A DNA stretch of 64,000 nt from Mobula hypostoma (taxonomy: Eukaryota), in the NCBI RefSeq assembly GCF_963921235.1, contig NC_086097.1, positions 61,816,001 through 61,880,000 on the forward strand. Direction: 5' to 3'. Below are positions 16,380-50,740 of the stretch, in pieces. Every line of letters starts with the position of its first letter. The stretch's first letter is position 1. The position numbers were made by a program, and so were the translations under genes. The notes below the pieces were generated by a model that was not told the DNA's origin, searched no databases, and saw only the letters and a program-made list of their open reading frames with translations.

Positions 16380-16880
16380 TGTTATGATCGTGAACAAAGT
16401 CACCAGAGAGACACTAAAGCTGGTGATATAGAAGACTTTATCCATCACAACAAGCAGGCATCTCTGACGAGACACTCGTACATCACAGTTTTATACCGTT
16501 AAGATGAAAGATGACTCAATGCAGTTTCAATAGTTGCAATAACATCATTTACTTCAATATGTTTTGGGTCGAGAATGCTTCCATTGAATTATATACCTAC
16601 ATTGGGAAATTCCTCTGAATGTTCAAATAACTTTGCTGGGACAAACTAATTGCAAGCTTTCTGAATTTATTTATACTTGCAATGGTACAAATTCCTTAAA
16701 CCCATAGTTGATGCAGGGCAATGTACATGTCCCCATTGTTTTAATGTTTGGCTGATACATATGCAATCTATGGGCCAGTTTTACTACAAATTATTGCTTG
16801 CAATTTATAATTCACATTAAGAACTGGAGACTGTTTCTTGTTTGAATTAATATCTGCTATATTCACATAACTTCATAACA
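16380..16880 (-). mobile_element. 3' LTR of an ERV-like element
   Basis: 501 bp bounded by 8-bp inverted termini TGTTATGA...TCATAACA; minus-strand polypurine tract AAGAGGGAA (16881-16889) directly precedes it. Confidence 0.75.
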
Positions 16881-18635
16881 TTCCCTCTTAGCCCCTGGAC
16901 ATACATGTGTCTCAGGAAGGCTAAACTTAAGGGAGGATCTGATTAAGTGGGACAGCAAAAATGCCCTTCATTTCAGATCCCTTCCCCAACTACTAGCCTA
17001 TCATATCCCAATGTGTACCTACATCCACACCATCTGTCATCCTTAATTGGCTAATTGAGTAAGCAAGGGTGCCAAACATTCCAGAAATTCGATCACATCT
17101 TCTCCTTGGATACTCCTGTCCTCTTAATATTAACTGTTTTTTGTCATTCATGTGCCTGTTAGCTTCTTCCTTATTGGCCCTTTGCAGTTTTCATATCCTT
17201 ATCTTCGCCACGTCAGTCTCTAATAACTGAAACTATCTGTGGCCAGGAGGTACCAGCAAGATAACTTTGTTTCAGGTTCATAGGCAACAGTTCACATTCC
17301 ATACCATGACAGGTGATTGTCAGAATAATCCGACAAGCAGCCTCTTAGTCCCTTTGGTCGATGTGCAAGAGGGTTTGGGGCAGTCTTTATTTGAATGGCT
17401 GCAAGAACTTTAGCTTGGTGGCACACCCTCCTGTAGTGTTCTTTCGATCACTAGCCCAACCACTGAAAGAGCCCAGCTCATATGTGTTCCCTCCCATTCA
17501 GGCTGGGGCGGCTATCTTCAGACACATTGTGCAATTCTCTTTCTCATTCTGCCTTGCCATCAAAGTTGTGGAACTTGAAGTCTGCCGTATCTCAGATTCC
17601 TTCCCATCTATTTTTCCAATATCTTTCTATTTTTATATATATAACCAGTCATCTATCTCCCAGAATCAGCTTTCATCACACAGTTACCATTACACTTTAA
17701 TATGCTGTTCATGGTTTGCTGACGTGATCACTCTGTGTCTGAATTCACTTTCACATTCTCTTTTATCTGCAGACCTGCTTCATCGGAAGTGGTCAGATAT
17801 GAAGCAGCAGGCTGATGTTCATCACTTAAATTGCATGTAATGACATGGTTACTGGGTAGAATTGATCCCTTATTCTGTCTGTGAGGGTGACAGGAAGGTG
17901 AGTCATACTGTTTAACCAGGCTTTGCTTTGCTGGGTCTGCACACAAACAAAGGTGTCATTTGTCAGAACCAATATCTGTGGTCCTATCCACCTCCGAGTG
18001 AGCCCTGCCTTTTCAGACAGCTCAGTGACATGACTTGGTTACCCACCTGTGGGAGGATTAGGATTATCTTCTTTCCCTCTGGCAATATGTTGCTGTTGTT
18101 TTGCTCTATGCTACATCATGTTAATCTGGATACAATGGTCCTACAAATTTCAATATATTCTTACTAAGTTGGCTCCTATAGTTTCTTTCTCTACACATTC
18201 AATTCCTGTCGACTCATGCTCCTTTTCTCTCTTTGCCCCATAATCTGAACACCCATTCCCTTTCCTCACCTTTCTCTCCCCTTTCTGGTGTGTCTTTGAT
18301 GTCTGCACGCAGCTGCACTGCTCCTAATGGTTCTTGACTCTGTTTGAACTCCTGACATGATTCACGTACAGTGCCCATCTCCTGTCCCTGCTTAGTCTGC
18401 TGTCGCTCAGTGGGCCATATTGTCTGCTCTGGGGATCACACAAGGTTGCTGCCCTTGTCCTGTCCATGTGATTTCTTCCTTTCCTGCCTTATAATGTGTC
18501 TATCCCAAGGAGTACTCCCTTATTGTTTGGAGACACCTTAAAATCTGCAGGAAGCTGCATTTCCTCAATCTCAAGCATCTGAGGCTCATTTCTCTCTCTG
18601 CACTCATAGTTTCACCCCCTGCACTGGTAATGTTC
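16881..18635 (-). mobile_element. ERV-like internal relic: protease C-half, integrase C-terminal domain, env-like region
   Basis: Minus translations FKVSPNNKGVLLGIDTL (~18500), QVGNQVM...RRWIGPQILVLTNDTFVCVQ..KAWL (~17900-18050; retroviral IN CTD RWxGP motif) and ARQNEKENCTMCLK (~17520-17560; CxxC). Confidence 0.6.
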
Positions 18636-19775
18636 ACAGTTCACAGGAAATTTATTATCAAGCTACATATGTCATGATATACAACCCTGAGATTCATTTT
18701 CTTACAGATCTACTCAGCAAATCCAATAGCCATAATAAAATCAATGGAAGCCCATACCCAATGGAGCAGGAAACCAATGTGCAAAAGATAGCAAACTGTG
18801 CAAATACAAAAGAAAAAAAATCATAATAAGTAAATAAGCAATAAATATTAATTGCATGAGATGAAGAATTCTTGAAAGTGAGTCCATAGCAGATGGAACA
18901 GTAGATGCTCTTAATGGTGGGGAGGGCTTTACCCATGATGGACTGGGATGAATCTGGTACACTTTGTAGGATTTTCCATTCAAGGGCATTGGTATTTCTA
19001 TACCAGTTTGCAATGGGTCCAGTCAATATACACTCTACTACACATCTATAGAGGTTTGACAAAGTTTTAGATGTCATGCTGAATCTTGCAAACTCCTAAG
19101 GAAGTGGAGGCACTGCTGTGGTTTTTTTGTACATACACTTACGTGTGAGGCCCAGCACAGGTCCTCTGAAATGATAACATTGAGGAATTTAAAGTTGCTG
19201 ACTCTCTCCACCTCTGATTCTCCAATGAGGACTGGCTCATGGACTCTGGTTTCCTCGTCCTGAAGTCAATAATCAGCTTCGTGGTTTTGCTGGCATTGTG
19301 TAAAAGTTGTCGTGATAACACAGCCAAGTTTTCAAACTTCATCCTATATGCTGACTTATTACCACCAATGACAATGACAATGACAATGGTGCCATCATCA
19401 AACTGAAGTATGGCATTGTAGCTGTGTTTAACCACATAGTCAAAAGTGTAGAGTGAGTAAAGCAGGGAAATAAGCACCCAGTCTGTGGTGCACCTGTGCT
19501 GATGTAGATTGTGGAGGAGATCTTGTTGCCATTCTGAACTGACCAGGATCTGCAAGTGAAGATATCGAGGATGCAATTGCTCAAGGAAGGATTGAGGCCA
19601 ATGTCTTGAAGCTTATTGATTAGTTTTGAGGGGATGCCAGTATCGAACGTCGAGTTGTAGTTGATAAAGAGCATCCTGATGTATGCATCTTTGCTGTCCA
19701 GAATTTCTAGGGTTAAGTGAAGAGACAATGAAGTGGTATTTTCTGTGGACTTGTTGTGCCGGTAGGCAAATTGGA
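18636..19775 (-). mobile_element. Rex1/Babar LINE, 5'-truncated
   Basis: QFAYR, YIRMLFINYNSTFD, STGAPQ and TTKLIIDFR motifs, then a 3' UTR; inserted inside the ERV-like protease. Confidence 0.85.
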
Positions 19776-19927
19776 CTGTTTAGTCTGGAAATCGCATGTG
19801 AGCTGGCTTTCTTGAGATTATACCTGGACTTCTCCATGGTAATGTAAATTGCTCTCCAGTTTGGCAAGGATAGATCAGTTATCAATACTGAAGACCCTTT
19901 GTCCACTAAAATATCGCTTTGCTGAAG
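19776..19927 (-). pseudogene. ERV-like aspartic protease N-half
   Basis: Minus frame SDILVDKGSSVLITDLSLP matches the LVDTG active-site motif with T>K. Confidence 0.65.
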
Positions 19928-22900
19928 TGTTGTACATTTAATATTTCAGTAATATTTGAGTAATATTGAAAATATATTATTTCTTTAAGCATTCTTTATT
20001 GTTTACATAATGCATTGTGGGTTATAGGCAAAAGTACATAAATGGCATATGTCATTACACTGTCATGTGATACTCACTTCTCTTGAGCTCCCGTCCTTTT
20101 CTTATAACTATCTTTACATTTCAGAGTTACAAAGTATAACAGTGGCGATGAGATATTTTAAACATGAAACCAAGGTGACTATCTACCTGTTAACGTGCAC
20201 TGAGTTGCTTGAGTTAAAAAGAAAGTGCCAAACAGTTGAGCAAAAGAAAAGCAGTACACCACATGTCTCTGCAGAAAAGGAGACAAAGGCGATTGAGTTA
20301 AGAAAAGGAAGAACATGAAATAATTCACAGGCTCTTTAACAGTGAGTACCAGCTTATAGTAATCATAAAATAAGAGCATAAATAACTGACTACATTGGAA
20401 AGATTGATGCATTTGATTACGCAACAGATAACTGGATTGTGGATATAGCAGATTGAGAGATATTTCAACGTAAATGGAACATACAATGACAAGCACATGC
20501 AATTTTGCTGTGTGCGTTGAATTTGAAGGCAGAAAGTTTGCTTAGAAGTCTAGCTGCTCCAATTAAGCTAGCTGAAATGAACTTTGTTGATATCATTGTA
20601 AGGGGGTTTCTTCTTTTATGTTACTGCGCAGGCTAACTAAAATGACTTCTTTGTTATGGTAGAATTGAAATGGCTTCTTTGTTATGTTAACTGCTGAGAA
20701 AGTCCTCCTGCTAGCAGTTTGTCTGGACTATGTTACTGATAAGAGAAAGAACAAACCAATTCGGATTGATGTTATTCTTTCTGTGTATCTGTAAGTTATT
20801 GTGATGCACGGGTTTTTGGACAGAAGGCGGAAGAGAGAGACAGAGGATGGACAAGGTGCTGTGAGTCCACTAATGGGGTTGGACCCTATGCAGGAGTCCG
20901 AGGTCCAAGGTGTTCGGCGAGGAGAGGAGATGGAGACGGACTTATGTGGAGTGTCTGGTCGACCACCGTTGTCGGTCCCAGGCGGCAGGTCGAGGTGGTC
21001 TGAGGGCAGATGCAGGGTGAAGAAGGAGGGTCCTGAGCTCCAACTGTTTGTGCATGTAGAGATTGAACTTTGGTAAGAGTGGCGCCTTTTATTTTCCTTT
21101 TATATTTTATCTCTATTAATTATATAGTTCCAGTAATATCTATAAACTGTAATTCATTTAATCGTATCCGGTGTATCGTCTGTTATTTGGGTGGGGTGGG
21201 GTACATCACACAGCATCCACACAAACTAATTACTCATTTTGGCGGAGCCGAGGGCTGTTTCCCTAGATGACAGCGAGCTGAGCAACCCTGAGGCTTGCCA
21301 GAGGGGCTACATCAAGAAAGTAATGCAGGGACATTTAAAATCAAAAACATTGCTAATTGCAGAACTCTTTAAGTCTCATTAGGAGGATCAAAATCAAGGG
21401 GAGTCCAGTTCAGCGTAGTTGTCTAAGTATTGTCAGTTCTGAAATGGGCTTAAGATGCACTTACAAGAAATATTACAAGAAAGCATTCAAAGCAGCTCCT
21501 GACCGAAGCACAACTTGCATTTAAATATGTTGCATTACATTGAGATGGAGACAGCAGAAAGACACACAATTGCATTGCAGCCAGGAATGAAAGTGAGCAT
21601 GAATAAAACGGCAAAGTCTAAACAGATATGTGCCTGGCCAAAGCAAATTGTATCACTACTGTGGCAGGGGCTTACATTCACAAATTCACAAGGACAATGC
21701 AGATTTAATATTGAAACTTGCAGAAAACTAACCTGCATGTTGTTGATGAAAACTCTGATAATGATGAGAGTGATCATAGAACTACATAGCCTTGAGATCT
21801 ACAATGTGAAAACTAACAACAGGCAAGCATATGGTTTACAACAGAAGCATATTAATTCAAATTAAACTGGACACTTGTTTAGTTGTTTCAGTCATTCCAC
21901 AAAATGAGCTTGAACAGCATTTCAAAGATACTGAAGATATCCAACTAAGAACATGCACTGGAGAAAAGATAACTCCTGTGGGAATGACATTTATAACAGT
22001 GAAATACAGTGGCTAACAAGTTACATTGGGCTTGTATGTGGTAAAAGCAGGAACACAAGCATTGTGAAGTCATGATTGGCTGATACAACTACAATTTGAT
22101 TGAAGATCCATCCATATTTTCATGCCACACTCCCTACAAGAGAGCCAACTGAAAGCCAACTAAGAAAGGTACTGGGTGATGAAAGATGGCATTGGCAAAC
22201 TCAAACATATCGAGGGTAAAATAGTGTGAAATGAAAATGCCACACCCAAGATTTACAAAGCTAGTTCGGTTCCTTATCTCATCCGTGAAAAAGCAGCCAG
22301 TGAGCTAGAATGCATGGAGGGTGAAGGAATTCTTTCCAAGATTGGGTGGAGCCCATAAGCAATGCCAATGGCCCCAGTAGCCAAGAGGCATGGGTGTGTC
22401 GTGATCTGTGTGATTTTAAGGTCATTATCAACCGTGTATTAAAAGTAGATCAATACCTCTGCTCAGGAAGGAGAATATCATTGCAAGCTTTTTTGGAGGA
22501 AGGCACTTAAATAAAATAGACCTAGCTGAAGCCAATCTACAGATGGAGATGGAAGAAGAATCCAAAGTGTTTCTCACCATAATCACTCACAGAGGGCTTC
22601 ATCGTTATAATAGGCTTATTTTTGAACTAGCATCTGCACTTACACTCTGGCAGAAAGCTATGGACTGGATGCTGTGAGGCTGCTCATGTAGTCAATGTTA
22701 CCTGGATGACAAAGAACATCTCCAAAACCTGAAGATAGCATTAAAAAGATTAGAGCAACAAGGGCTCATAGCAAGATGCAACAAGTTTGATTTGTTGAAA
22801 CCAAGCATCACTTATTGTGTTAGACTATTGACGCACAAACATTAGACAAGTCTGCAGAGAAAATTCAAACAGAGGCGGATACCCCAAGGTCAAAGCATTT

Positions 22901-24464
22901 GTCACAGTTGTGGTCCTTTTTAGGATTTGTCAATGACTATAACAGGTTCCTGCCAAACACGGCTATTGTGCTCAGCTCCTTGAACTCATTACTATAGACT
23001 GGGAAGAAATGGCAATGGAAAAAGCAGCGTGTGGTGGCTTACCAAAGGCAAAGGAAATAGTGACATCAGACGCTGTACTCACACATTATGATCCACATCA
23101 TCCAGTGAAGCTTGCCTGTGTCATCTCAACTTATGGTATAGGTGCAGTCATGTCACAGGTTATGAGTGATGGAAGTCCCATAGCCTTTGCATCAATTTCC
23201 CTTACCACTACAAAGAAAAATATGCACTGATTGACAGAGAGGCCTTAAGTCTGGTTTTGGCTATAAGGCATTTCAACCAGTACTTGTATGGGTGATCACA
23301 ACCAATAATGCCCATTTTCAATCTAGAGAAGGGTGTTCCGCTAACAGCAGCCAGTCTACTGCAGAGATTGGCTTTGTTTCCCGGAGGACACAATTACAAG
23401 ATCAAATTCAAGTGACAACTAATCATGGAAACGCTGATGGACTGATTTTGGAAAACAAAATAGCTGAAAAATTTACTGAAAGGGACACTCCTCCTGATGA
23501 ATTCTCTATAACGCAAACCAAGTGTCTTCCTGTTAAGGTAGGGATAATCCAAAGGGAAACCAGAAAAGACTCCACACTGTCTCAGGTCTACCTGGCCACC
23601 AAAATGGCTGAAATTAGCAACAGAAATCCCAGTTCCCTAATTTTTACTGGTGCTGGGATGAACTTACCATTGATGTCTGTTGTTTAACAGCTGAAACAAA
23701 ATGAAGGTTCCTCAAGCATGGAAGTTTGATGTTTTACTCCTGGACACGCAGTCCTGGTGAGGGACTACACAGGTAATCAAACATTGGTGCTCAATAAGAT
23801 TATGGACAGAACTGAACCACTCTCCTGCAAGGTGGAGAATGCATCTGAAGTCTTCTGCCCAAATATCATCTGCAGATGGCACATTGATCAGCTGAGGGGA
23901 GCAGAATCAATTCTTAGAGAAGAAAGGTGTCCAGGGCCGTCAGTACCACTTCCTGCAGTCCCAGAGTCAACCACCACAGAAGGAGCCCTAGAACCTGAGA
24001 TTGTTTCACAGACACAAGTCTCACCTGTCAAGTAGGTGACCTCTCTTGTTAGGAAAGACATATTATCTCATAGGAATAAGAAAGCCTCCATAGAGACTAA
24101 ATATTCAGGCCTGAATGGTACAATTTAAAATTTACTATGCTGTGGATGTCAGTATATTAGTATATTAGTTGTATGATATAATATACTGTGTATGTAGTTG
24201 AGATGCATTCTATATTGAGTTGGAGTATAAAGCTAAGCAAGGAAAAGTATCAGCAATATTCTCAGTAATATTGTCTGATTAAGCACTCTTTGTTGTTTGG
24301 ATAATGCATTGTGGGTCATATGTAAAAGTACACAAATGGCATACGTCATTATACCACTGCATTATACATATACACCTCACTTAAAGTAAAAATGAACTTA
24401 GACTTCTGAGCACCCATCTATTTCTTGCAATTAGCTTTATGTTTTGGAATTACAAAACATAACA
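19928..24464 (+). mobile_element. Decayed Gypsy LTR retrotransposon with both LTRs
   Basis: 5' LTR 19928-20141 (TG..CA); PBS TGGCGATGAG 20143-20152 (tRNA-Ser(GCT)-like); decayed gag, PR (IKLDT), RT (YLDD), RNase H (VLTHYDP..LAC; NHGNADGL); 3' LTR ~24248-24464 after a purine tract. Confidence 0.9.
20597..21311 (+). mobile_element. Solo LTR nested in Gypsy gag
   Basis: TGTAAG..GCTACA; reverse-complement match to the LTR at 37110-37780; near-TSD tcat/tcaa; flanks rejoin as gag sequence like 58780. Confidence 0.9.
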
Positions 24465-25010
24465 CCAACTCCCTGATAAACTATTTATTTGCATTCATGT
24501 TTGACCAGTACTGGCAATGGAGGCTACCAGTTGAAATTTCTATGATCTGGATTCTGACCTCACTAGCTCTATAATCTGATCAGCAGTCAAATCACCCATT
24601 GTTTTCACACCTTCCTCCCTTTTTAGGACACTACCTCTAACTGTGGCCCGATAGGGCACAGCTGTAGCGTAACATCTCCTCTACCAAGTTATGCCCAGTC
24701 CAACAGTTCCTTGCTAGGTGCCCTGGTTATTGGCAGACAAAACAAATCTTCTCTGTCTTCACAGCAGCTACATCCACTACAACCACTTTATGACTTCCCT
24801 TCCCCCTCCCCTGGTCTATCTCTCAGGCCCTTGATACCATCACGGAGTAGGTTGACCCCACTGCTATCTTCAAATCTAACACTTCCTGATAGGCTCTGCT
24901 TAGGCCTTCATTCAGCATTTTCAGGAAAAATGGATCATTCCTCCTCGGATTATCCAACCCTGATTGCCCCTCAGATGCTTATTAGCTCTCTGAACTACTG
25001 ACATTAATTA
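24465..25010 (-). pseudogene. ERV-like gag C-terminus with two CCHC zinc knuckles and terminal TAG
   Basis: One minus frame reads DNPRRNDPFFLKMLNEGLSRAYQEVL...CFVCQ*PGHLARNC (24703-24744) and RYSCALSGHS*R*C (24628-24669); after a frameshift, LTADQIIELVRSESRS-TAG (24540-24542). Confidence 0.7.
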
Positions 25011-26927
25011 GGGCTTAATTAGGAAGGGGAAAAAAGATTATGGGAGAAAACTGGCAGGGAACATAAAAACGGACTGTAAAAGCTTTTATAGATATGTAAA
25101 AAGGAAAAGACTGGTAAAGACAAATGTAGGTCCCCTGCAGACAGAAACAGGTGAATTGATTATGGGGAGCAAGGACATGGCAGACCAATTGAATAGTTAC
25201 TTTGGTTCTGTCTTCACTAAGGAGGACATAAATAATCTTCCAGAAATAGTAAGGGACAGAGGGTCCAGTGGGATGGAGGAACTGAGCGAAATACATGTTA
25301 GTAGGGAAGTGGTGTTAGGTAAATTGAAGGGATTGAAGGCAGATAAATCCCCAGGGCCAGATGGTCTGCATCCTAGAGTGCTTAAAGAAGTAGCCCAAGA
25401 AATAGTGGATGCATTAGTGATAATTTTTCAAAACTCGTTAGATTCTGGACTAGTTCCTGAGGATTGGAGGGTGGCTAATGTAACCCCACTTTTTAAAAAA
25501 GGAGGGAGAGAGAAACCGGGGAATTATAGACCGGTTAGCCTAACGTCGGTGGTGGGGAAACTGCTGGAGTCAGTTAGCAAGGATGTGATAACAGCACATT
25601 TGGAAAGCGGTGAAATGATCGGACAAAGTCAGCATGGATTTGTGAAAGGAAAATCATGTCTGACGAATCTCATAGAATTTTTTGAGGATGTAACTAGTAG
25701 AGTGAATAGGGGAGAACCAGTGAATGTGGTATATTTGGATTTTCAAAAGGCTTTTGACAAGGTCCCACACAGGAGATTAGTGTGGAAACTTAAAGCACAC
25801 GGTATTGGGGGTAAGGTATTGGTGTGGGTGGAGAATTGGTTAGCAGACAGGAAGCAAAGAGTGGGAATAAACGAGACCTTTTCAGAATGGCAGGCGGTGA
25901 CTAGTGGGGTACCGCAAGGCTCAGTGCTGGGACCCCAGTTTTTTACAATATATATTAATGACTTGGATGAGGGAATTAAATGCAGCATCTCCAAGTTTGC
26001 GGATGACACGAAGCTGGGTGGCAGTGTTAGCAGTGAGGAGGATGCTAAGAGGATGCAGGGTTACTTGGATAGGTTGGGTGAGTGGGCAAATTCATGGCAG
26101 ATGCAATTTAATGTGGATAAATGTGAAGTTATCCACTTTGGTGGCAAAAATAGGAAAACAGATTATTATCTGAATGGTGGCCGATTAGGAAAAGGGGAGG
26201 TGAAACGAGACCTGGGTGTCATTATACACCAGTCATTGAAAGTGGGTGTGCAGGTACAGCAGGCGGTGAAAAAGGCGAATGGTATGCTGGCATTTATAGC
26301 GAGAGGATTCGAGTACAGGAGCAGGGAGGTACTACTGCAGTTGTACAAGGCCTTGGTGAGACCACACCTGGAGTATTGTGTGCAGTTTTGGTCCCCTAAT
26401 CTGAGGAAAGACATCTTTGCCATAGAGGGAGTACAAAGAAGGTTCACCAGATTGATTCCTGGGATGGCGGGACTTTCATATGAAGAAAGACTGGATGAAT
26501 TGGGCTTGTTGGAATTTAGAAGATTGAGGGGGGATCTGATTGAAACGTATAAAATCCTAAAGGGATTGGACAGGCTAGATGCAGGAAGATTGTTCCCGAT
26601 GGTGGGGAAGTCCAGAACGAGGGGTCACAGTTTGAGGATAGAGGGGAAGCCTTTTAGGACCGAGATTAGGAAAAACTTCTTCACACAGAGAGTGGTGAAT
26701 CTGTGGAATTCTCTGCCACAGGAAACTGTTGAGGCCAGTTCATTGGCTATATTTAAGAGGGAGTTAGATATGGCCCTTGTGGCTACGGGGGTCAGGGGGT
26801 ATGGAGGGAAGGCTGGGGAGGGGTTCTGAGTTGGATGATCAGCCATGATCATAATAAATGGCGGTGCAGGCTCGAAGGGCCGAATGGCCTACTCCTGCAC
26901 CTATTTTCTATGTTTCTATGTTTCTAT
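25011..26927 (+). mobile_element. Young 5'-truncated CR1 LINE
   Basis: Contains the uninterrupted 557-aa ORF and an (atgtttct)n tail; lacks ORF1 and APE. Confidence 0.95.
25156..26829 (+). CDS. CR1 ORF2 reverse-transcriptase portion (open, no endonuclease domain)
   Basis: [34 protein letters not shown] and KFADDTKL in one open frame. Confidence 0.85.
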   Translation: MIMGSKDMADQLNSYFGSVFTKEDINNLPEIVRDRGSSGMEELSEIHVSREVVLGKLKGLKADKSPGPDGLHPRVLKEVAQEIVDALVIIFQNSLDSGLVPEDWRVANVTPLFKKGGREKPGNYRPVSLTSVVGKLLESVSKDVITAHLESGEMIGQSQHGFVKGKSCLTNLIEFFEDVTSRVNRGEPVNVVYLDFQKAFDKVPHRRLVWKLKAHGIGGKVLVWVENWLADRKQRVGINETFSEWQAVTSGVPQGSVLGPQFFTIYINDLDEGIKCSISKFADDTKLGGSVSSEEDAKRMQGYLDRLGEWANSWQMQFNVDKCEVIHFGGKNRKTDYYLNGGRLGKGEVKRDLGVIIHQSLKVGVQVQQAVKKANGMLAFIARGFEYRSREVLLQLYKALVRPHLEYCVQFWSPNLRKDIFAIEGVQRRFTRLIPGMAGLSYEERLDELGLLEFRRLRGDLIETYKILKGLDRLDAGRLFPMVGKSRTRGHSLRIEGKPFRTEIRKNFFTQRVVNLWNSLPQETVEASSLAIFKRELDMALVATGVRGYGGKAGEGF

Positions 26928-27244
26928 TATCATTCCTCAATCACTGTCACCTCCCTCCCAGTCGCTGCCCACCTCCTCCTTAAATAAGCTATATCCCTCC
27001 TCATTACTGACAGTCCTGGTAGTTATCCGGGTACCATGCCACACTCCCTGGGCTATACACTCTCGCACATTCCACTGTCATTATGCTTTTACCCACACAG
27101 GTACAGTATATCTTTTGGGTGCATCCTTCTGGTTCTTGACTTTGTGATTATACATTAAATGACCCTGCCCATGGCTGCTGCAGAGACCAGTTTCCTTCTC
27201 AATGTTCTTAATTTTGACTGCCTATAAAGAGCAATGTTTCCTAT

Positions 27245-27792
27245 TGTCACCGTCCCGACCGTTAATTCCCCATTTTCTCCCAGTTCCCTTTGATGGTGGC
27301 ACACCTGGTTCGCACCAAGACCTGCAGCATAAAAACCCCAGCTTTACATCCACTCATTTCCAGATCATTGTTTAGCCAGTGTGGTAATTAACGTTCCCGG
27401 CCACTTAGGATTGGATAAGTATTTTAAGTTTATTTCAGTACTGAGGTTTACCTGTGAAGCTCTGTCACTCCATGTCAAGATAAGTATTCTAAGTTTTACT
27501 TCAGTACCGAGGTTTACCTGTGTAACTCCATCTCTCCGTGTCAAGAAAAGTATTGTCTACCGCTTGCCTTTCTATGCTCCGTGTCAAGATAAGTTTTGCC
27601 TGCCCCCTGTCTCCTGTTTGCTGTTCAGCGCCAGAAATGCCCTGTGTGAAGATAAATTCTGCCTGCCTCCTGCTTTCCTGTTCACCCTCCTGTTTGCTGT
27701 TCAACTCCAGCCACTCTCTCACCCTCGTCTGCATCCTAACTCAATCTCCGTGCCAGTGTCTTGCGTTTGGGTTCGCCCCGTTCATTGCAACA
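27245..27792. mobile_element. Solo LTR with 5-bp TSD
   Basis: TGTCAC...GCAACA termini, perfect CCTAT duplication (27240-27244 and 27793-27797), internal imperfect repeats of gtgtcaagataag. Confidence 0.85.
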
Positions 27793-28849
27793 CCTATTAA
27801 GTAAGATTAGCTTTCTGCTCTCCAGTCCTCCCTCAGTATCACTCAGTTAGCATTACCATTGGCCTCAGTTCTATTTTAACCTTTTAGATAAATCTGTTGA
27901 TTCCACTATTGAAATTCCCTTAAGCTGGTTTTAAGCTTTACTTTCATACAAAGTATTGAGTTTCTGTCCAAGGTGCCAAAGTTGGCCGTGAAGTTGCCAC
28001 ATGCTACAGGAACATATCTCCCCTTCCCCCAGCAACAAGCTACTAAGCATTCACTGAAAACCTTTGCAATATTTCACAAACTCTCTGAATATATTAGGAA
28101 ATGCCAGTGATCATGCGACAGTTCCCTTCTCAAGACTCAAGAGATCAGAAATTTGTCTAATGCTTCCCGTTCAAACATCCATTTGCTCTACTTTATGTGA
28201 TATGCTTCAGCCAACAGTGTCTCCACAAGCTCATACTCTAAGTGCCAAAGAATATTTACACCTGCTTTGGGATGTCTCCCAGGTAGTATTTATTGGGAAC
28301 TCCAAAGGAAATGTACACCAGTGTTTGGAAAAGAAGCCTAGCAGATGTAAGGTATTAATGTATTGGATTCCAGGCAGTGGAAAGCAGCCACTAAGCTATA
28401 CCACTGAGTTACTAAATGATCATGTGAATGAGACAAGGAACTCCAGGGTTAATAAATGAATGCTTGCTGTGTATTTTCACCATGGCATAAAATCGTATTG
28501 CCCTGTTCTTTTGATTTAGGAGGGCAATCTCTTCAGTAATAGGGATGATCAGATACCTCTTTCCAGTAACGTCCTGAGATATGAGTTGACAGAATGAACT
28601 AAACATCCAGATTGAACACTAAGAAGCTTAAGACTCTTAAATACTGGAAATCTGAAATAGAAGCAGGTAACAGCAGAAACACACAGCAAACTATTTGGTT
28701 CTGCAGCACTCTTAATTCAATGCTTAGGGCACAATAGCATAACGGTTAAGTTACTGAATTAATGTCCTTGAGTTCCAATCCCATCACAGTTGCTGAAATA
28801 CACAAACAAGTGAAAAAGACTGTGTGGACAAGGTAGGGAGCTTGTTAAT

Positions 28850-29895
28850 TTCAGACTGACGCATCTTGAGAGACTGGAGAACAGGCAGAGAGCCTGCTTG
28901 GAAACAGCCATTTTAAGAGCAGCTGATTATTTGGAGGGATCAAAGTGCTGAGCCTGAGGTCTAAGTGCAGAGGCTTGGACAAGCAAGACCGACCAGTAAT
29001 CAGGGATGGTAACAAGTCATTTCCTCCTTTTTTTAGCCCAACATTTAGTTAGGAAGCCGAGATAACTGTGGGAGAGGGGTGTAATCCTCCTGTGAAATGT
29101 GGGAGATCGGGGGAAGTCAGGTGCTCCTGCTATCTACACTTGCATGAAATATGTCCAGTGGCAGCTCGGCTCAGAAGGTTTGTATCGATAGAAGCAGCAG
29201 CTGACTCACTGAGGTGTTTACAGGAGGCAGTAAATGTTAAGTGAGGAGTTTTGGGAGGTGTTACATTGTGGGTTAAACCAGACAGATCAGTGACTGCTAG
29301 TTGGAGCTGGCAGGTAGTGGAGGAGTCCCCGTGGTTACCTTCTTCTCTGACAAGTATATTGCTTTAGATCCTGTTAGACGGAAAGCCTCTCAGGAGAAAG
29401 CAACAACAGCAGTCAGTTCCAGTGACACGACAAGTGGCTCTGTTATACAGAAGGGAATGTTAAAGTCTTGGCAAGCAGCAATGATAGGAGACTCAGTGTA
29501 GAAGGGAGCTGGCAACTATTTCTGTAGCCATGAGCGTGACTCCTGACTGATGTATGGCTTCCCTGGTGCAAGATTCAATGATACTGGTGAGTGGGTGCAC
29601 CATATTCTTGAAAAGGCAGGACTGCGGCAGCTAGAAGTCATGGTCCATGTTGGTACTAGCAATAGTACCACAAGGTAGTGAGCTTAAAAAAGGTAGAACA
29701 GCTGAGTGTGGTACTTAGGAGCTGGTGCAGGGGGCAGAACCTCAGATATTTCAATACCTGGAGTTATTTCTGAGTCAGCAATAACCTGTACAAGAGACAT
29801 AGGTTTCACCCAAACTGGAAGGGGCTAGAGATGTTTGCCAGTACTGCTCAGGGTGGTTTAGCTAGTGAAGCAGAGGGTGAGAACCAAAGTGGTAG
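28850..29895 (+). mobile_element. Old CR1 5' region/ORF1 relic
   Basis: Decayed zinc-finger region, AAMIGDSV and VHVGT esterase motifs. Confidence 0.7.
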
Positions 29896-29898
29896 TAC

Positions 29899-30631
29899 AG
29901 AATCAGAATCCTTAATTATCGCCAAGTATGTGGACACATACAGGGAATTTGATGTCGGTTTCCCTGAGCTCTCGCTGTACAGAATCAGAAAGCAAAAAAA
30001 CAATAGTGCAAATAATCGTGAACTATATACAATGAAGTATACCTGTGTAAGTACAGGTGGACTTGGTTTATAATAGACTAAAATTCAAGTGTTCATAAGA
30101 CTGATGGCATACGGAAAGAAACTGTACTTGTACCTATTTTTCCTGGCATACAGTGATCTAAAGCACCTACCAGAAGGACGGAGTTGGAACAGGTGATGTT
30201 CAGGGTGTGATGGGTCTACAATGGTGCTGCTTGCTCACTTCCTGACTCTAGATGCATATAAGTCCTGGATCGAGGGCAGCTTCACACCAATAATCCTTTC
30301 CGCAGCCCTGACTGTTCTTTGGAGTCTATTCTTGTCTTGTTTGGTAGCTGATCCAAACCAGACAGTGATGGATGAACAGAGAACAGACTGGATAATTCCT
30401 GAACAGAATTGAATCATCAGCTCCTGAGGCAGGTTGTACTTCCTGAGTTGACGTAGGAAATGCAAACTCTGCTGCGCCTTTTTGGTAAGAGTGTCCGCGT
30501 TGGGTGTCCACTTCAGGTCCTAGGAGATTGTGACACCCAGAAACCTAAAGTTCTCCACAGCAGACACAATACTGTTGAGTATTATAGTGAGTCGGGGGAG
30601 TATTGGGGGGCTCCTCCTGAAGTCCACTGTC
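29899..30631 (-). mobile_element. Rex1/Babar LINE 3' part (continues at 34624-34675)
   Basis: HFLRQLRKYNLPQELMIQF..IIQSVLCSSITVWFGS; (ttctga)n tail; sequence resumes after the CR1 insertion. Confidence 0.85.
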
Positions 30632-33600
30632 CATAAGACCATAAGACCATAAGACAAAGGAGCAGAAGTAGGCCATTTGGCCCATCAAGTCTGCTCCGCC
30701 ATTTTATCATGAGCTGATCCATTTTATCCTATTTAGTCCCACTGCCCCGCCTTCTCACCATAACCTTTGATGCCCTGGCTACTCAGATACCTATCAATCT
30801 CTGCCTTAAAGACACCCAATGACTTGGCCTCCACTGCTGCCCGTGGCAACAAATTCCATAGATTCACCACCCTCTGACTAAAAAAATTTTTTCGCATTTC
30901 TGTTCTGAAAGGGCGCCCTTCAATCCTGAAGTCATGCCCTCTCATACTAGACTCCCCCATCATGGGAAACAACTTTGCCACATCCACTCTGTCCATGCCT
31001 TTTAAATTTCGAAATGTTTCAATGAGGTCTCCCCTCATTCTTCTAAACTCCAAGGAATACAGTCCAAGAGCGGACAAACGTTCCTCATATGTTAACCCTC
31101 TCATTCCCAGAATCATTCTAGTGAATCTTCTCTGTACCCTCTCCAACGTCAGCACATGCTCTCTTAAATAAGGAGACCAAAACTGCCCACAGTACTCCAA
31201 GTGAGGTCTCACCAGCGCCTTATAGAGCCTCAACATCACATCCCTGCTCCTATACTCTATTCCTCTAGAAATGAATGCCAACATTGCATTCGCCTTCTTC
31301 ACTACCGACTCAACCTGGAGGTTAACTTTAAGGGTATCCTGTACGAGGATTCCCAAGTCCCATTGCATCTCAGAACTTTGAATTCTCTCCCCATTTAAAT
31401 AATAGTCTGCCCGTTTTTTTTTCTGCCTAAGTGCATAACCATACACTTTCCAACATTGTACTTCATTTGCCACCTCTCTGCCCATTCTTCCAATCTATCC
31501 AAGTCTCTCTGCAGACTCTCCGTTTCCTCAGCACTGCCGGCCCCTCCACTTATCTTCGTATCGTCAGCAAACTTATCCACAAAGCCCTCTATTCCATAAT
31601 CCAAATCGTTGATGTACAATGTAAGAAGAAGCGGCCCCAACACTGATCCCTGTGGAACAACACTGGTAACCAGCAGCCAACCAGAATAGGATCCCTTTAT
31701 TCCCACTCTCTGTTTCCTGCCAATCAGCCAACGCTCTATCCACGTATGTAACTTTCCTGTAATTCCATGGGCTCTTATCTTGTTAAGCAGCCTCATGTGT
31801 GGCACCTTGTCAAAGGCCTTCTGAAAATCCAAATATACAACATCCACTGCATCTCCCTTGTCTAGCCTACTGGTAATTTCCTCAAAAAATTGTAATAGGT
31901 TTGTCAGGCAGGATTTTCCTTTAAGGAATCCATGCTGAGTTCTGCCTATCTTGTCATATGCCTCCAGGTACTCTGTAACCTCATCCTTGACAATCGACTC
32001 CAACAACTTCCCAACCACCGACGTCAAGTTAACAGGTCTATAATTTCCTTTTTGCTTCCTTGCCCCCTTCTTAAATAGTGGAGTGACATTTGCAATCTTC
32101 CAGTCCTCCGGAACCATGCCAGAATCTATCGACTTTTGAAAGATCATCGCTAATGCCTCCACAATCTCCACAGCTACTTCCTTCAGAACACGAGGGTGCA
32201 TTCCATCTGGTCCAGGAGATTTATCGCCCTTTAGCCTATTCAGCTTCCTGAGTACTTTCTCTGTCGTAATTGTGACTGCGCACGCTTCTCTTCCCTGCCA
32301 CCCTTGAGTGTCCGGTATCCTGCTGTCTTCCTCAGTGAAGACTGATGCAAAATAGTTGTTCAGTTCCTCTGCCATCTCCTCATCTCCCATTACAATTTCT
32401 CCAGTATCATTTTCTATCGGTCCTATATCTACTCTCACCTGTCTTTTACTCTTTATATACTTGAAAAAGCTTTTAGTATCCTCTTCAATATTATTTGCTA
32501 GTTTCCTTTCATAGTTAGTCTTTTCTCTCTTAATGATCTTCTTGGTTTCCTTTTGTAAGGTTTTAAAGACTTCCCAATCCTCTGTCTTCCCACTAATTTT
32601 TGCTTCCTTGTATGCCCTCTCCTTTGCTTTAACTTTGGCTTTGACTTCTCTTGTCAACCACTGTTGCATCCTTTTTCCACTCGAAAATTTCTTCTTTTTT
32701 GGAATATACCTGTCTTGCACATTCCTCATTTCTCGCATAAACTCCAGCCACTGCTGCTCTGCCGTCTTTCCCGCCAGTGTCTCTTTCCAGTCAACTTTGG
32801 CCAGTTCCTCTCTCATGCCACTTTAGTTTCCTTTACTCCACTGAAACACCGACACATCAGATTTCGGCTTCTTTTTTTCTAATTTCACAGTGAACTCAGT
32901 CATGTTATGATCACTGCCTCCTAAGGGTTCCTTCACCTCAATCTCTCCAATAACCTCCGGTTCATTACACAATACCCAATTCAGTACAGCCGATCCTCTA
33001 GTGGGCTCAACAACAAGCTGTTCTAAAAAGCCATCTCGCAGACATTCTACAAATTCCCTCTCTTGAGATCCAGTGCCGACCTGATTTTTCCAATCTACTC
33101 GCATGTTAAAATCCCCCACAATTATCATAACACTGCCCTTCTGACAAGCCTTTTCTATTTCCAGTTGTAATTTGTAGTCCACATCCCTGCAGCTGTTTGG
33201 AGGCCTATAAATAACTGCCATCAGGATCCTTTTACCCCTGCTATTCATTAGCTCAACCCATAAAGATTCTGGACCTTCCGATCCTATATCACCTCTTTCT
33301 AATGATTTAATATCATTTCTTACCAATAAAGCCACGCCTCCCCCTCTGCCTACCTTCCTATCCTTCCGATACACCGTGTATCCTTGGACATTCAGCTCCC
33401 AGAGACATGCATCCTTTAGCCAGGTCTCAGTGATGGCCACAATATCATACCTGCCAATCTGTAGCTGTACAACAAGATCATCCACCTTATTTCTTATGCT
33501 GCGTGCATTTAAGTACAACACCTTAAGACCAGTATTTGATACTTTTTGCTTTGATTTCACTGCAACTTTATTGCACTGCAGCTCATCCCAATGGCCACAC

Positions 33601-37106: not shown

Positions 37107-37109
37107 CAA

Positions 37110-37780
37110 TGTAGCCCCTCTGGCCACCCTCAGGGTCGCTCGGCTCGCTGTCGTCTAGGGAAACAGCCCTCGACCCCGCCATACTGGGTAATTAGTTTGT
37201 GTGGATGCTGTGTAATGTACCCCACCCTGCCCAAATAACAGACAATACACTGGATACGATTAAATGATTTACAGTTTATAGATATTACTGGAACTATATA
37301 ATTAATAGAGAATAAAATATGAAGGGAAAATAAAAGGTGCCACACTTATCAAAGTTCAGTCTCTTCGTACACAAAACAGTTGGAGCTCAAGACCCTTCTT
37401 CTTCACCCTGCGACCCTTCGGACCGCCTCAACTGGCCGCCTGGGACCAACAACAGTGGTCGAGCAGACGCTCCACACGAGTCTGTCTCCGTCTCCTCTCC
37501 TCGCCGAATGCCCTCCTCAGGGTCTGACCCCGTTAGCGGACTCACAGCACCTGGTCCATCCTCTGTCTTTCTCCCCCACCTTCTGCCTCAAAATCCTACG
37601 CATACCAATCTTCCAGATACACTAAAGTCATAACAACTATCCCAATTGGTTCGTAACAATCTCTTATTACCCCCTAACCCACAACAAGCTGCTAATGCAA
37701 AACTTTCTTAGCATTTAACATAACAAAGAAGCCATTTTAATTAGCCTACACAGCAACATAAAAGATGAAACCCCCTTACA
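37110..37780 (-). mobile_element. 5' LTR of the PNMA-gag Gypsy
   Basis: TG..CA termini, homologous to solo LTR 20597-21311, followed by the PBS. Confidence 0.9.
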
Positions 37781-44459: not shown

Positions 44460-45105
44460 CCAAGGGACACATACACCAATCCTCATAGGGAGATCAGAAG
44501 TGGAGCGAGAATTTCAAGTTCCTGGGTGTCAAGATCTTTGAGGATCTAACTTGGTCCCAACATATTGATACAGTTATAAAGAAGGTAAGACAGCGGCTAT
44601 ACTTCATTAGGAATCTGAAGAGATTTGGTATGTCAACAAGTACACTCAAAAACTTCTCTAGAAGTATTGTGGAGAGCATTCTAACAGGCTGCATCACTGT
44701 CTAGTACAGGTGGAGGGGGGAGCTACTGCACAGGACTGGAAGAAGCTGCAGAGGGTTATAAATTTAGTTGGCTCCATCTTGGGTATTAGCCTACAAAGTA
44801 CCCCGGACATCTTCAAGGAGCGGTGTCTCAGGAAAAGCAGCATCCATTATTAAAGACATCCAGCACCCAGGGCATGCCCTTTTCTCACTGTTACCATCAG
44901 GTAGGAGGTACAGGAGCCTGAAGGCACACACTCAGCAAATCAGGAACAGCTTTTTTCCCTCTGCTATCAGATTCTTAAATGGACATTGAATCCTCGGACA
45001 CTACCTCATTTTCTTAATATGTATTATTTCTGTTTTTTGCATGATTTTTAATCTATTCAATATACATATACTGCAATTTATTTATTTATTATTATTATTT
45101 TATTT
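44460..45105 (+). mobile_element. Rex1/Babar 3' fragment
   Basis: FKFLGV..KKVRQRLYF..; KAASIIKDIQHPGHALFSLLPSGRRYRSL. Confidence 0.85.
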
Positions 45106-45854
45106 TGGATTTTTCTGCTTCTGATTCGTAAATAGTTCCAACTCTACCGACATATATTGTGGTCTGTTGTTACTCACAATTTGTTTGGATAAGCCATTTC
45201 TGGAGAAGAGAGTCCTCAGAGTAGGAACAGTCTTTTCTGATGTGGTTGACTTCATTGGTATGATGTCAGACCACTTTGAATGAATATCCACAGCACTCGG
45301 ACACATGGAGTTCATGAATGGCCCAGCAAAGTCTATACGCACTCTTTGTCATGGTGAAGGGAGCTACTCCCACAGGTGCAAAGGTGCTCATTGGGGTGCA
45401 TTTTGAACAATCTGACATCCTGAACAGTTTTTCGTCATGTCTTCAATCTGTCTGTCTATTCGTGGCCAACACACATAGCTCAGGGTGAGATTCTTCATCT
45501 TGACTGTACTGAGGTGTCCTTCCTGCAGACTCTCTAACACTCTGGTGTACAGTTTAGAGGGAACCACAACACGAGATCCACACATCAGCGTTCTTTAACA
45601 TACAGACAATTGGTCTCATCTCACTGAGAACTCTGGAGACATTGGATTACCATGAGCTGGGCATCCTTGCATGGTGATGTCTCTACTTTTGACAATGTTG
45701 GGTTATTCCTTGTTTTTCTTTGTATTTCATTATTTGTTACAGACAGCTAGTGCACCAGTGCTGTGTGGAACACTTCTGCTGGGTCACAGAATGAAGACTG
45801 TATTTCTTCAGATGTCAATACTGAAAGCTATGACAAGCCATCAGTTTTAGAAAT

Positions 45855-46124
45855 TAAAAGTCTGTCACGAGTCTTGTGGCCCATCAGGCCGGTGCTTATG
45901 CCAGTTTCAGTGGCGTGAAGCGACTGAGAGTAAAAGACTACCCCCGGATAGGATGTCGGTTTATCGTGAGGTTAACATTCTCCACACATTCTCAGCTGGG
46001 TAGACTGGAGCATTGCGTGATTAAGTGCCTTGCTCAAGGACACACATGCTGCCTCGGCCGAGGCTCGAACCCACGACCTTCAGATCGTTAGTCCAATGCC
46101 CTAACCACTTGGCTACGTGCCACA
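45855..46124 (-). mobile_element. tRNA-derived SINE with CORE-like body
   Basis: Pol III A box TAGCCAAGTGG and B box GGTTCGAGCC, then gtgtccttgagcaaggcacttaa; interrupts Gypsy pol. Confidence 0.85.
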
Positions 46125-47175
46125 CAGCTGTGCTGTTTGATACCTGTGAATTCATGACATAAGAGTGGGATCCTAGGAAAAGTGCCCACACTTGTAACGG
46201 AGTAGCAGATATCACTGGAATTCACTTGCTGAGACTGAAGATGGACACAAGGGGCTGATGAACTGTCACTAGAGTAAAATTTTGTCCCTGGAGATAGTGG
46301 TGGAACTTCTTTACTCCCCATACTCAACTAAGGGCCTCTCAGTCGATCTATGTGTAGTTGTGTTCTGTGCTAGTCAGTGATCTTGAAGCAAACACAATCG
46401 GGTGTTCAGATCCATCTTTTGTAGTGTGTGCCAAAATGTCTCCAATGCCATAAGAGGATCCATCTTGCGCCACTCTAATGGGTTTAGATGGTCATATTGG
46501 GTGAGCAGTTCATCTGACATTATTAGTCTCTTTGTTTCCTTGATTGCTCTTTCACATCTTTCTGACCACTCCCAATTTGCTCCTGTCTGCAACAGTGCAT
46601 TCAATGGGGGCAGCACTGTAGTACTGTTTGGGAGAAACCAACAATAAAAGCTTACAAGGCCCAAGTATGACCTGAGTTGTGTCACATTTTCTGTTTTGGG
46701 TGCCTGCAGCACTGCTTCAGTTTTCTCCTGTGGCTTATGTAAGACATGCTTGCCAATGACACATCCACAATATGAAATCTCATTCTTGAAAAACTCACAT
46801 TTCTTTCTCTTTGCATGCAAACCATACTCACTCAGCCTGGCAAGCACTTTACCAAGATTCGGGAGGTACTCCTCATCATTATTGCCAGTCACTATGGTGT
46901 CATCAAGGTGACATTGTGTTCCTGGGGCATCGGAGCACTTGGTCCATTGGTCTTTATCAAATTTCTGGTGCAGAGGCAATGCCAAAGACACAAAAATGTC
47001 TTCTATTTTCAGCAGATGATACTGCACAGTACACAGCACAGGATTGATGCTCACTTTGAAGTCCCCCACATTTCCAAACAGCTCCAGCCTTCCCTTTTTT
47101 TGACCATCAGGACAATGGGCATGGCCCAATTGTTCCACTCATCCTTGGAGAGAATGCCAGATGCCTCCATGTTCT

Positions 47176-49178
47176 TCTTCTTCTTTTTCGTTTTATGGCA
47201 GATGGCAACCAGTTTTCAGTGCGTTACTGCCACCTGCTAGACTTGTAGTGTTCCAACCAAATATATCCTGGAGTTCTCTACTTTAGACAATCTAGTTCAG
47301 CCTGCAGTTCTCTATTAGCATCACTCTGTAGTTGCAAATCCTCGTGAATGCTTAATACACTCATTAGATAATGCCGCAAACTGCTATTCTTTCCTAATTA
47401 TGTCACATGTTTTTGCATAGTTGCATTACCTCAATTACATTGATTTCATCTACATCACTTGCAAGACTAAAATCGTCTTGTTAAAGAATAGTAATTATCG
47501 CGCGTTATACTTTTAAAATTGCCGTTTTTCCAAGTCTATCTGCTTTTTCATGCTTTCCTTTTCTTGGATCATAGCCTGCAGTTGTTTACTGAGACCTCAG
47601 AGTTCTTCTTCATTTGCTTCCATGTTTTCATTTTATAATCTGAATGTAGATAATTTACTTTGCAACAAATTCCTTTTCCTTTTGTAACCTTGTAATAATT
47701 TCCTCCATTTTCCAATCTCTTTCCAATTCACCGTTGTTCTTGTCAGGTACTTCTTTGTTGTTGGAGTTCTGCACATTTACCCTGAGCTTCAACCATAAAA
47801 TCTGAGGATTTTCCTTAAGTTCTGAAACACTTCTTAAATTCTTGACCATTTGCGATAAATATACTGCCATTAAGATTCCACCTCCCCTGCCTGTGAACTG
47901 TTGGATCCTCCATTCAACGTTTCTTTTATTTCTTCCCACCTAATTCCTTTAATACCAAGATACTTTTCTGCAGACTTGATGATAATTTTGATTTTCTCAG
48001 TTCTTTTGCTTGCTGCGCTGAACAATTAATTGCATCCATCATAAAAAGCATGAACTCCTTTCTACTCATTAATAGTGTATCCTTATTTTTCATATTACAA
48101 CTCTCACAATTCACCAGTTTATTATTCTCTGTATTTGTTTGCTTGACAGCCTTTTTTTCATCAAATTCTTTCACTGCCTCTGCATAACTGGTTCCTTGAG
48201 TTACTTTTACATATTGTATCTCAGCCGTCTTCTTGCTAGAAATGCACCCTCGATAAGCTGCGCTGTGTTCCTTGCCATAATTGCAGCATTTCAGCCTAGC
48301 TCCCGCTTCACATTTCCCATATTCATGTTCTCCAGCGCATCTACCACATCTTTGTTTTCCTCTGCAGACTGCCGCAATGTGCCTGAATTTCTGACATTTA
48401 TAGCATCTTAAAGGCGGTGGTATATATATTCTAATTGCATAACACATATTCCCTCAGTAAAGGTTAGTCAGCAATCTCTCCTCACCAAAGTTAATCATTA
48501 CCAATAAACTATTATACTTCTTCCCGTTTCTTGTAACTTTCAAATGTTTGGCCTCAATAAGTTTTGCTCCTTTTATGTTCTGTTTAATCTCATCCATAGT
48601 AAATTTTGTTGGTATCCCCGAAATAACTCCTCTAGTCCACTTTCTATTGTTGGGTATTGAGCATTGTACTTCTTTGCTGTTTATTTTACATAATCTTATC
48701 ACTTTACCTTGCTGAGAACTATCCCGACAAATCACTAATAGCGATCCATTTCGTAAAATCTTTGCTCCTTTAATTTCGCCTATAATTTTGTTGAGCATCT
48801 TTGTCAAATGAATGGGGTTCCAATCACCAAATGACGCTCCGTCTGCACTTAGTTTTATAATTGCTTCAATTTCATCTTCTTTCCATTGCTTTGCTGACCT
48901 GCTTTGATCATCCGCTGACTCCTCAGAGGTTGATATCCCATAGCTCTGCTTTCTTTTCTTCCTCTTTCCATTCTGTTCCTCTTTCCCGCCGACCTCCATC
49001 TCTAGTTCACTTCCACTCTCACCAAAAACTTCCTTCAACGGCTTGGCTCTTTCCTTGATGTTCTCTCTCTCCTCCATTTTCCAGTCATAACTCGACTCTC
49101 TCTTTCCACAACCACTCCAACCACAGCAACTCCTCCACAACTCGTCTCACCACTCTCCTTTCTCACAACTCAGCACTC
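47176..49178 (-). mobile_element. Non-autonomous Nimb/I-group LINE (ORF1 with CCHC knuckles; ORF2 almost absent)
   Basis: ORF1 RGVISG..YIPPPLRCYKCQKFRHIAAVC..CGRCAGEH..; TAATG stop/start overlap at 47868-47872; APE start NGQEFKK; 3' end ggtggcagtaacgcac..(gaa)n; 13-bp TSD GCCTCCATGTTCT at 47163-47175 and 49179-49191. Confidence 0.85.
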
Positions 49179-50271
49179 GCCTCCATGTTCTGAAGTTCAG
49201 AATCCACTTTAGGACATAGCGAATAAGGCTCTTGACACCTTTCATGGAATCTTGGAGTTACTGCCTCATCTGGTTCAATTCTGGTCTTCATGACTTTGAG
49301 TTTACCAATCCCCTTCTTAAACACCTTCTCATTAGCATTAATCAGCTATGATAATCTCTGGCTAGTGCTACCATTTGGGCTGCAGTTGCCTGTTAATGAC
49401 GCATTGGGAGCTTTGATTGAGTGTCAGTCTAGTTTTTCTCAACCATTCACATCCAGAAAGTGCTGCCCCTCCACTTTTCATCACATAAAGCTCTAACTGC
49501 TGTTCTTTGCCTCTGTACATTACATTCACTTTCAGTTTGCCTTTGGGAGAAACTTCTTCTCCTGTGTAGTTCTTTAGCACCACCGAGGTCTTTTCTAATG
49601 GTAGCTTGGAAAACATTCTGTCGTAGTCAGCCTCTGAAATTATAGACAAAGCGGACCCTGTAACCAGCTCCATTTTCAGTTTTATACCAGACACATCTAT
49701 TGTGATCCAGATGATTTTGCAATCTGCTTCAGTAATGCTATGCATTTCTAGGGATGACAGCTCATCTTTGTCAGATTCTGTTTTGTCTGATTCAGTTTCA
49801 CTTTCAGTCACTTTATGCACATGTTTACTTTTGTGTTTGAAACTTTCCACTGGGTGTGTTTTTTCTCTTTGGTTGTCTGACTTGCAGACTCTCTCTATGT
49901 GACCTTATCTGTGACACTTTCTGTAAACTTTTATTTTGGACCAACAGTCATTTGCATTATGGGAGGATTTTCCACATCAACAACATTTTTGGCTTTTTTG
50001 GACCATTCGGGGACAGTTTTTGTGTTTCACATTCTAAACTCTCTTTCTGTAATTCTGATGCATCCTTTGCTGCTATCTCTATTGATATTGCAATGGTAAA
50101 TGCCCATTCTAAGGTTAGGTCTCATTCTGACAGTAGCCTCTTTTGAGTGTTTGACCATGCATGCCACTTACAAGCCTGTCCCTTAATGCATCAGAAAGCC
50201 CATCTCCAAAGTCACAGTTTTGGGAAAGTTTGTGCAGTTCTGCAATTTATTTTTAAATGCTTTCATCCTTT

Positions 50272-50740
50272 GAAACATAGGAACACAGAACATAGAAACA
50301 TAGAAAGCCTACAGCACAATACAGGCCCTTTGGCCCACAGAACTGTGCTGAACATGTCCTTATCTGAGAAATTACCTAGGGTTACACATAGCCCTCTATT
50401 TTTCTGAGCTCCATATATCTGTCCAGGAGTCTCTTAAAATACCCTATTGTATCTGCCTCTACTGCCGTCGCCGGCAGCCCATTCCACGCACTCACCACTT
50501 TCTGTGTAAAAAACTTACCCCTGATATTTCCTCTGTACCTGCTTCCAAGCACCTTAAAACTGTGCTCTCTCATGCTCGCCATTTCAGCCCTGGGAAAAAG
50601 CCTTTGACTATCCACACAATTAATGCCTCTCACCATCTTGTACACCACTATCAGGTCAGGTCACCTCTCCTCCTCTGTCACTCTAAGGGAAAAAGGCTGA
50701 GTTCACTCAACCTATTCTCATAAGGCATGATCCCCAGTTC
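50272..50740 (-). mobile_element. CR1 3' fragment inside Gypsy gag
   Basis: DSQRLFPRAE..FFTQKVV; (atagaaac)n tail. Confidence 0.9.

Follow-up and report, generated by a model that had tools for sequence, protein, structure and literature searches.

Remnants of a probable class I endogenous retrovirus beneath nested insertions in Mobula hypostoma

Endogenous retroviruses (ERVs) are already known from cartilaginous fishes. For the elephant shark, Han 2015 describes CmiERV lineages II and III as epsilon-like and lineage I as snakehead-like; one lemon-shark ERV is related to a human ERV (PMC4422223). ERVs with a gamma-type envelope (Env) protein are reported from six cartilaginous fishes, with more than 500 copies in three of them (10.1101/2021.11.23.469661). 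The class I clades Jin and Mu come from Xu et al. 2018, and the gamma-like clade Jin is presented there as amniote-only (PMC6001957). Here we analyse a 64,000-nucleotide stretch of Mobula hypostoma (NCBI RefSeq assembly GCF_963921235.1, contig NC_086097.1, positions 61,816,001 to 61,880,000; hereafter the window, numbered from its first letter), whose minus strand carries a probable further class I ERV lineage. Very probably, the remnants are what is left of a single ancient provirus, long dead, from the class I (gamma/epsilon-like) retroviruses; nested insertions interrupt it, and none of our references is a close match.

Read along the minus strand, the pieces follow retroviral order, as the initial annotation had proposed: zinc knuckle, split protease, integrase C-terminus, CxxC of the Env surface subunit (SU), polypurine tract (PPT) and long terminal repeat (LTR). 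The 3′ LTR (16380–16880, minus strand) is high-copy, spans 501 bp between TG..CA ends, and carries an 8-bp terminal inverted repeat as well as an AATAAA at 16671. The PPT (16881–16890, minus strand) lies directly upstream and abuts the LTR. Folding of the LTR end is barely above that of shuffled sequence (z −2.0). Searches of the window with blastn and nhmmer recovered no second LTR copy, in agreement with the earlier failure to find a 5′ LTR. No primer-binding site was found, the 64-kb window contains no tRNA genes, and the PPT/LTR pattern matched 0 stretches in metagenome contigs.

The window was scored, unaltered, with profiles tolerant of stops and frameshifts. References comprised a retrovirus set grouped by a reverse transcriptase (RT) tree, 83 Pol-like proteins and 120 anamniote-led Env proteins. 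Of the 83 Pol-like proteins, 29 went into the class I Pol profile, along with five gammaretrovirus references, and 13 into the Gypsy profile; 53 of the 120 Env proteins made up the anamniote Env profile. Significance was assessed against shuffles of the zone (300 unless given otherwise), 164 other window segments, and shuffled whole windows.

Three independent profiles, those of the RNase H His-loop, the integrase C-terminus and the SU CxxC, each match best, across both strands of the window, within one 0.8-kb minus-strand stretch that has the protease halves on one side and the PPT and LTR on the other. Specifically, the C-terminal His-loop of RNase H (18228–18296, minus strand), which the initial annotation had missed, is of retroviral type; no shuffle and no other segment equals it (0/300 and 0/164), and it scores above all 12 shuffled windows. 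Its z is 8.1 with amniote class I, 5.1 with amphibian, 4.3 with gamma and 3.6 with fish references, and 1.7 with beta references; no spuma-, lenti- or alpha-like RNase H C-terminal motif was found (z −0.5, 0.0 and 1.8). The integrase C-terminal domain (17907–18085, minus strand) is likewise matched by neither shuffles (0/300) nor other segments (0/164), which bears out the C-terminal motif recognized earlier. It has a z of 8.6 with amniote class I, 6.5 with gamma, 5.7 with fish and −0.1 with Gypsy references, and a raw score of 52.4 with the class I profile versus 35.0 with the Gypsy profile; the domain is thus of class I type, though not exclusively, as beta references reach a z of 5.8. Its top Pfam match is IN_DBD_C, a weak one (E = 0.05).

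The env remnant (16891–17852, minus strand) begins with a hydrophobic leader near 17852–17796 and contains the SU CxxC stretch at 17611–17504. The gamma-type profile matches this stretch better than any other in the window, with none of 500 zone shuffles and none of 20 shuffled windows equalling it, for a slice selected after a screen of about 78 slices; the CxxC-bearing, env-like stretch first noticed by eye is thereby substantiated. With the anamniote Env profile, 8 of 300 shuffles are as good, and a profile of seven shark Env proteins gives no match to the env stretch (17/60 shuffles as good); the SU stretch fits the mammalian/avian gamma-type profile better than either. Motifs resembling the immunosuppressive domain (ISD), CX6CC and a fusion peptide, seen by eye near 16950–17100, were not significant in profile tests. 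Taken together, the RNase H stub, the integrase C-terminus and the SU CxxC support a class I (gamma/epsilon-like) retrovirus, and not Gypsy, as the probable source of the element.

The protease is split, as had been claimed, with halves on both sides of a LINE. Its N-terminal part (19837–19927, minus strand), which includes the region of the active-site motif, has a profile match at 19924–19859 (2/300 shuffles as good), and its C-terminal part (18446–18633, minus strand), which carries frameshifts and stops, has one at 18587–18446 (0/300 shuffles and 1/164 other segments as good). An exact 9-mer occurs at 18625 and 19837 (about 0.02–0.03 expected by chance in the range searched, as an estimate); the N-terminal part stops at one copy and the C-terminal part starts at the other. 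Because this target duplication (18625–18633 and 19837–19845) bounds the LINE, the high-copy fragment (about 18634–19836, minus strand) is about 60 bp longer than first reported and ends at 19836, not at 19775. We take it to be Rex1-like from its motifs and the name first given to it; it has no Pfam match. A sub-threshold Pfam match to H-NS over the protease (E = 0.0012) was treated as chance.

Between the protease and env, much of pol is missing. RT, the tether, the N-terminal half of RNase H, and the integrase HH and core were each searched for in four segments, none of which was significant (best 5/100 shuffles). The earlier statement that RT, RNase H and the integrase core are absent therefore stands for RT and the integrase core, and fails for RNase H, of which the His-loop remains. 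A weak, tentative integrase zinc-finger remnant lies at 18072–18134 on the minus strand (10/300 shuffles as good). The distance from the protease to the end of RNase H is about 245 nt versus 2028–2529 nt in references (measurable in three of five), that from the end of RNase H to the integrase CxxC is 111 versus 321–366 nt, and that from this CxxC to the C-terminal motif is 141 versus 747–771 nt. Furthermore, the Env CxxC lies 650 nt from the LTR versus 987–1272 nt of coding sequence in references (six of eight measurable). Such spacing implies at least four probable internal deletions, and the initial view of an internally deleted ERV with nested elements is strengthened by the RNase H stub, the class I integrase C-terminus and the SU CxxC.

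We placed contigs of four runs from related organisms (A, B, C and E) on the window; one run, X1, may stem from the source organism itself. Summed contig depth, which gives no copy number, is 1279–2803 in the LTR bin 16516–17001, 227–561 in env, 117–176 at 17974–18459, and 14–59 in the flank bins 28180–29637. At six variant sites in env and protease, 5–23 contigs per run carry another letter, in all four runs; the ERV is a multi-copy family in all four organisms. In addition, sequence words from parts of 16380–18635 occur in eight further organisms, one of which has over half of them; no RNA data set was listed as containing them. A contig of organism C (18082–18694) crosses the junction between the ERV and the Rex1-like LINE with 28 differences in 613 letters, so the locus predates the split of A and C. 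A flank contig of organism E shows 132 differences in about 1430 letters.

The deletions could instead have been inherited: the element may belong to a non-autonomous subfamily in which a master copy first acquired the pol deletions and a helper provirus then multiplied it in trans, an account that we regard as possible though doubtful. Three separate pol deletions each removed a catalytic core and left short stubs, the RT deletion is common to organism C (its contig 18082–18694 has no gaps), and defective ERVs can multiply through trans complementation (PMC3769647; 10.1101/2022.10.18.512801). However, the contigs of the four runs showed no other copy that shares these breakpoints, and at site 18340, in the region of the RNase H stub, another letter occurs in 1–4 contigs per run versus 5–12 in protease and 5–23 in env, with noisy point depths. 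Contigs of both C and E cease to fit at 18082, the inferred integrase-core join, where 18 and 5 letters remain unplaced; this weakly suggests that the break came after the ERV insertion. The nested Gypsy also lacks its integrase zinc finger and core, so such losses are common in old elements here. On balance, decay after insertion, for at least some of the deletions, is slightly ahead of loss before insertion with copying in trans.

On the gag side, the 3′ part of gag (24465–25010, minus strand) contains a zinc knuckle at 24744–24703 that matches Pfam zf-CCHC (E = 1.2e-4, above the cut-off), and a degenerate second knuckle at about 24669–24628; of the CCHC knuckles initially described, the first is confirmed and the second survives only in this degenerate form. 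The knuckle lies about 62 codons from the protease across the Gypsy insertion, within the 43–70 codons spanned by eight references. A TAG at 24483, noted initially, lies 48 codons past the last knuckle and about 13 ahead of the catalytic Asp, whereas in all eight class I references the stop lies 16–29 codons past the knuckle and 26–40 before the Asp. Three in-frame stops, two of them ahead of this TAG, separate gag from protease, and none fits both reference distances. The TAG is an unlikely gag terminator, as it fits neither distance and two in-frame stops precede it.

Two further pieces may extend the element: a probable, tentative middle of gag (26928–27244, minus strand), purine-rich like the other pieces and with no profile match, and a probable, tentative 5′ part of gag or leader (27793–28190, minus strand), in which the purine bias ends near 28190. 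All pieces of the element, these two included, have a purine-rich minus strand (A 0.31–0.35, G 0.25–0.30), and the inserts and the flank beyond 28200 are without this richness. Base composition and position are what tentatively carry the ERV past 25010. Profile tests supported neither a matrix-like motif near 28000 nor, near 24900, a capsid C-terminal helix, and a stop-free gag stretch gave no usable match against Atlas.

It is quite improbable, in our judgement, that the locus is a composite, with the ERV reaching from protease to LTR and the gag-like pieces contributed by another element through rearrangement at the Gypsy. No target duplication was found at the flanks of the Gypsy, the 5′ parts of its LTRs differ (elsewhere the LTR pair has a Kimura two-parameter distance, K2P, of 0.19 over 178 columns), zinc knuckles are generic, capsid and matrix go unmatched, and a contig of organism E over 24496–24809 is preceded by 191 letters that do not fit the window. 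Nevertheless, the gag pieces share the strand and base composition of the remaining pieces, and stand in the right order and at the right spacing. Least probable of all, and largely refuted, is that the element is an ordinary Gypsy-type retrotransposon without env, its env-like stretch being due to chance: Gypsy elements also have W.GP motifs and knuckles, and the motifs of the Env transmembrane subunit (TM) are undetected, but the RNase H stub carries the His-loop, whose conserved His is missing from Gypsy RNase H (PMC4408406), the integrase C-terminus favours class I over Gypsy, and the SU CxxC is the best in the window.

Several observations weigh against a single class I provirus. Capsid and matrix similarity is undetected by profiles, also in the segment initially called capsid-like, and in gag only the knuckle scores. 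Since the Gypsy is without a target duplication, continuity from gag to protease rests on spacing and composition; among the contig joints listed, none skips a nested insertion. For the protease, significance is only local: its C-terminal part falls under the whole-window null and is the second-best match there. In the env region, ISD, CX6CC and a membrane anchor are undetected (223/300 shuffles as good); they were probably lost by deletion, as the region is shorter than in references. Each profile match is short (22–57 residues), identity to any reference does not exceed 32%, the panel holds no identified WDSV-, SnRV- or loki-type reference, and the decayed pieces have no database match: 0 of 219 candidates passed, and a search of 1.84 billion proteins with one frame of 16853–18640 retrieved none at E ≤ 0.001. 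PDB searches of the pieces returned the knuckles and a weak match to the MMTV integrase C-terminus, and nothing else.

All stubs score best against class I references, and across 149 residues none of the 34 references is more than 32% identical. Five gammaretrovirus references rank within the top seven of the 34 class I Pols and the named bony-fish ones in the lower third, in a ranking that rests on short pieces and related references, some without protease. The stubs are short, and the element is therefore given no placement within class I. The gamma lean is worth testing because clade Jin is described as amniote-only (PMC6001957). We consider it unlikely that the element represents an undescribed gamma-leaning (clade Jin-like) cartilaginous-fish lineage that spread partly as a pol-eroded non-autonomous subfamily. 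The literature yielded no description of this lineage, although one may exist.

The other insertions announced initially were all recovered: the Gypsy by a Pfam RNase H match, CR1 by RVT_1, and the solo LTR by its target duplication. The Gypsy (19928–24464, plus strand) has RT and RNase H; its integrase zinc finger and core are undetected (89/100 and 37/100 shuffles as good). Contigs of other Gypsy copies skip 801 nt at 23116–23918 in all four runs. The Gypsy also includes a 650-bp repeat (20663–21312) that is 82% identical to 37109–37742 in reverse orientation, and that is very deep in organisms A–C and much shallower in E. The CR1 LINE (25011–26927, plus strand) is young, with a 605-codon RT frame (RVT_1, E = 7e-32), and the solo LTR (27245–27792), of another family, has TG..CA ends and a 5-bp target duplication. 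At the edge of CR1, a contig of organism B ceases to fit and leaves 105 letters unplaced; a contig of organism E does so at the edge of the solo LTR and leaves 212. CR1 is apparently absent here in B and the solo LTR in E, which suggests that both are younger insertions.

These observations are compatible with the following history. An env-bearing class I retrovirus would have entered the germ line, leaving LTRs in large numbers and internal sequences in smaller ones, as the multi-copy signal shows. The present copy was in place before organisms A, B and C diverged, as the shared nested-insertion junctions show, and would have lost its 5′ LTR. Judging from landmark spacing, at least four internal deletions may have removed about 1.8 kb (RT, tether and the N-terminal half of RNase H), about 0.2 kb from the N-terminus of the integrase and about 0.6 kb from its core, and no less than 0.3 kb from env. 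From the relatives' contigs, the Gypsy would have entered between nucleocapsid and protease, followed by the Rex1-like LINE in the protease, the solo LTR and, last, CR1. Judged by its sequence, the element encodes nothing functional.

Elsewhere in the window, the 45–51 kb region was first taken for a fuller class I ERV; profile scoring identifies it as an ordinary Gypsy. This second decayed Gypsy (45100–51000, minus strand) retains a gag knuckle, protease, RT, RNase H and integrase, and holds a piece of CR1 as well as, at about 47900–49150, a nested LINE-ORF1-like stretch that has cysteine/histidine knuckles. A short insertion, labelled SINE-like by eye (46130–45860, minus strand), splits it between RNase H and integrase. 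A third Gypsy fragment (58175–60561, plus strand) is 71% identical to the nested Gypsy over 1355 nt, and a LINE 3′ fragment (29920–30640, minus strand) matches Pfam ALKBH8_N (PF09004, E = 1.5e-13), probably as a LINE C-terminal domain.

With this locus, a little-surveyed group of vertebrates gains a further class I ERV lineage, in a copy that screens based on RT or TM would miss; its four-element nested stack provides a relative time scale across related species. If fuller copies put the RT near gammaretroviruses, that clade would be extended to cartilaginous fishes, and the finding would matter more if the pol deletions prove common to a subfamily.

Among known systems, ETn/MusD and deer-mouse ERVK-like non-autonomous ERVs likewise lost pol cores and kept the LTR and 3′ region, and HERV-H deletion forms are further ERVs that lost pol cores. 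Known non-autonomous ERVs are, however, defined by several full copies of one structure, whereas the structure of the element is read here from one copy; the deer-mouse study required five copies sharing deletions (10.1101/2022.10.18.512801). Lokiretrovirus Env is described as resembling paramyxo/pneumovirus F (PF00523; PMC7947760); Pfam scans gave no PF00523 match, which a decayed copy may miss, and the SU CxxC argues against an Env of this type. The elephant-shark CmiERVs are likewise old cartilaginous-fish ERVs but near complete (PMC4422223). The anamniote ERVs with gamma-type Env were found through the TM motifs ISD and CX6CC, which are undetected in the element, and may include its family (10.1101/2021.11.23.469661). 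Two knuckles, as in the element, are present in our class I reference L006, and one survey of 2341 human class I chains lists two knuckles in 304 of them (PMC4724089). The element differs from class I ERVs at large in having no RT or integrase core, and hence no standard placement, but resembles them in its gag-pro-pol-env order, His-loop RNase H, type of integrase C-terminus, SU CxxC and PPT–LTR.

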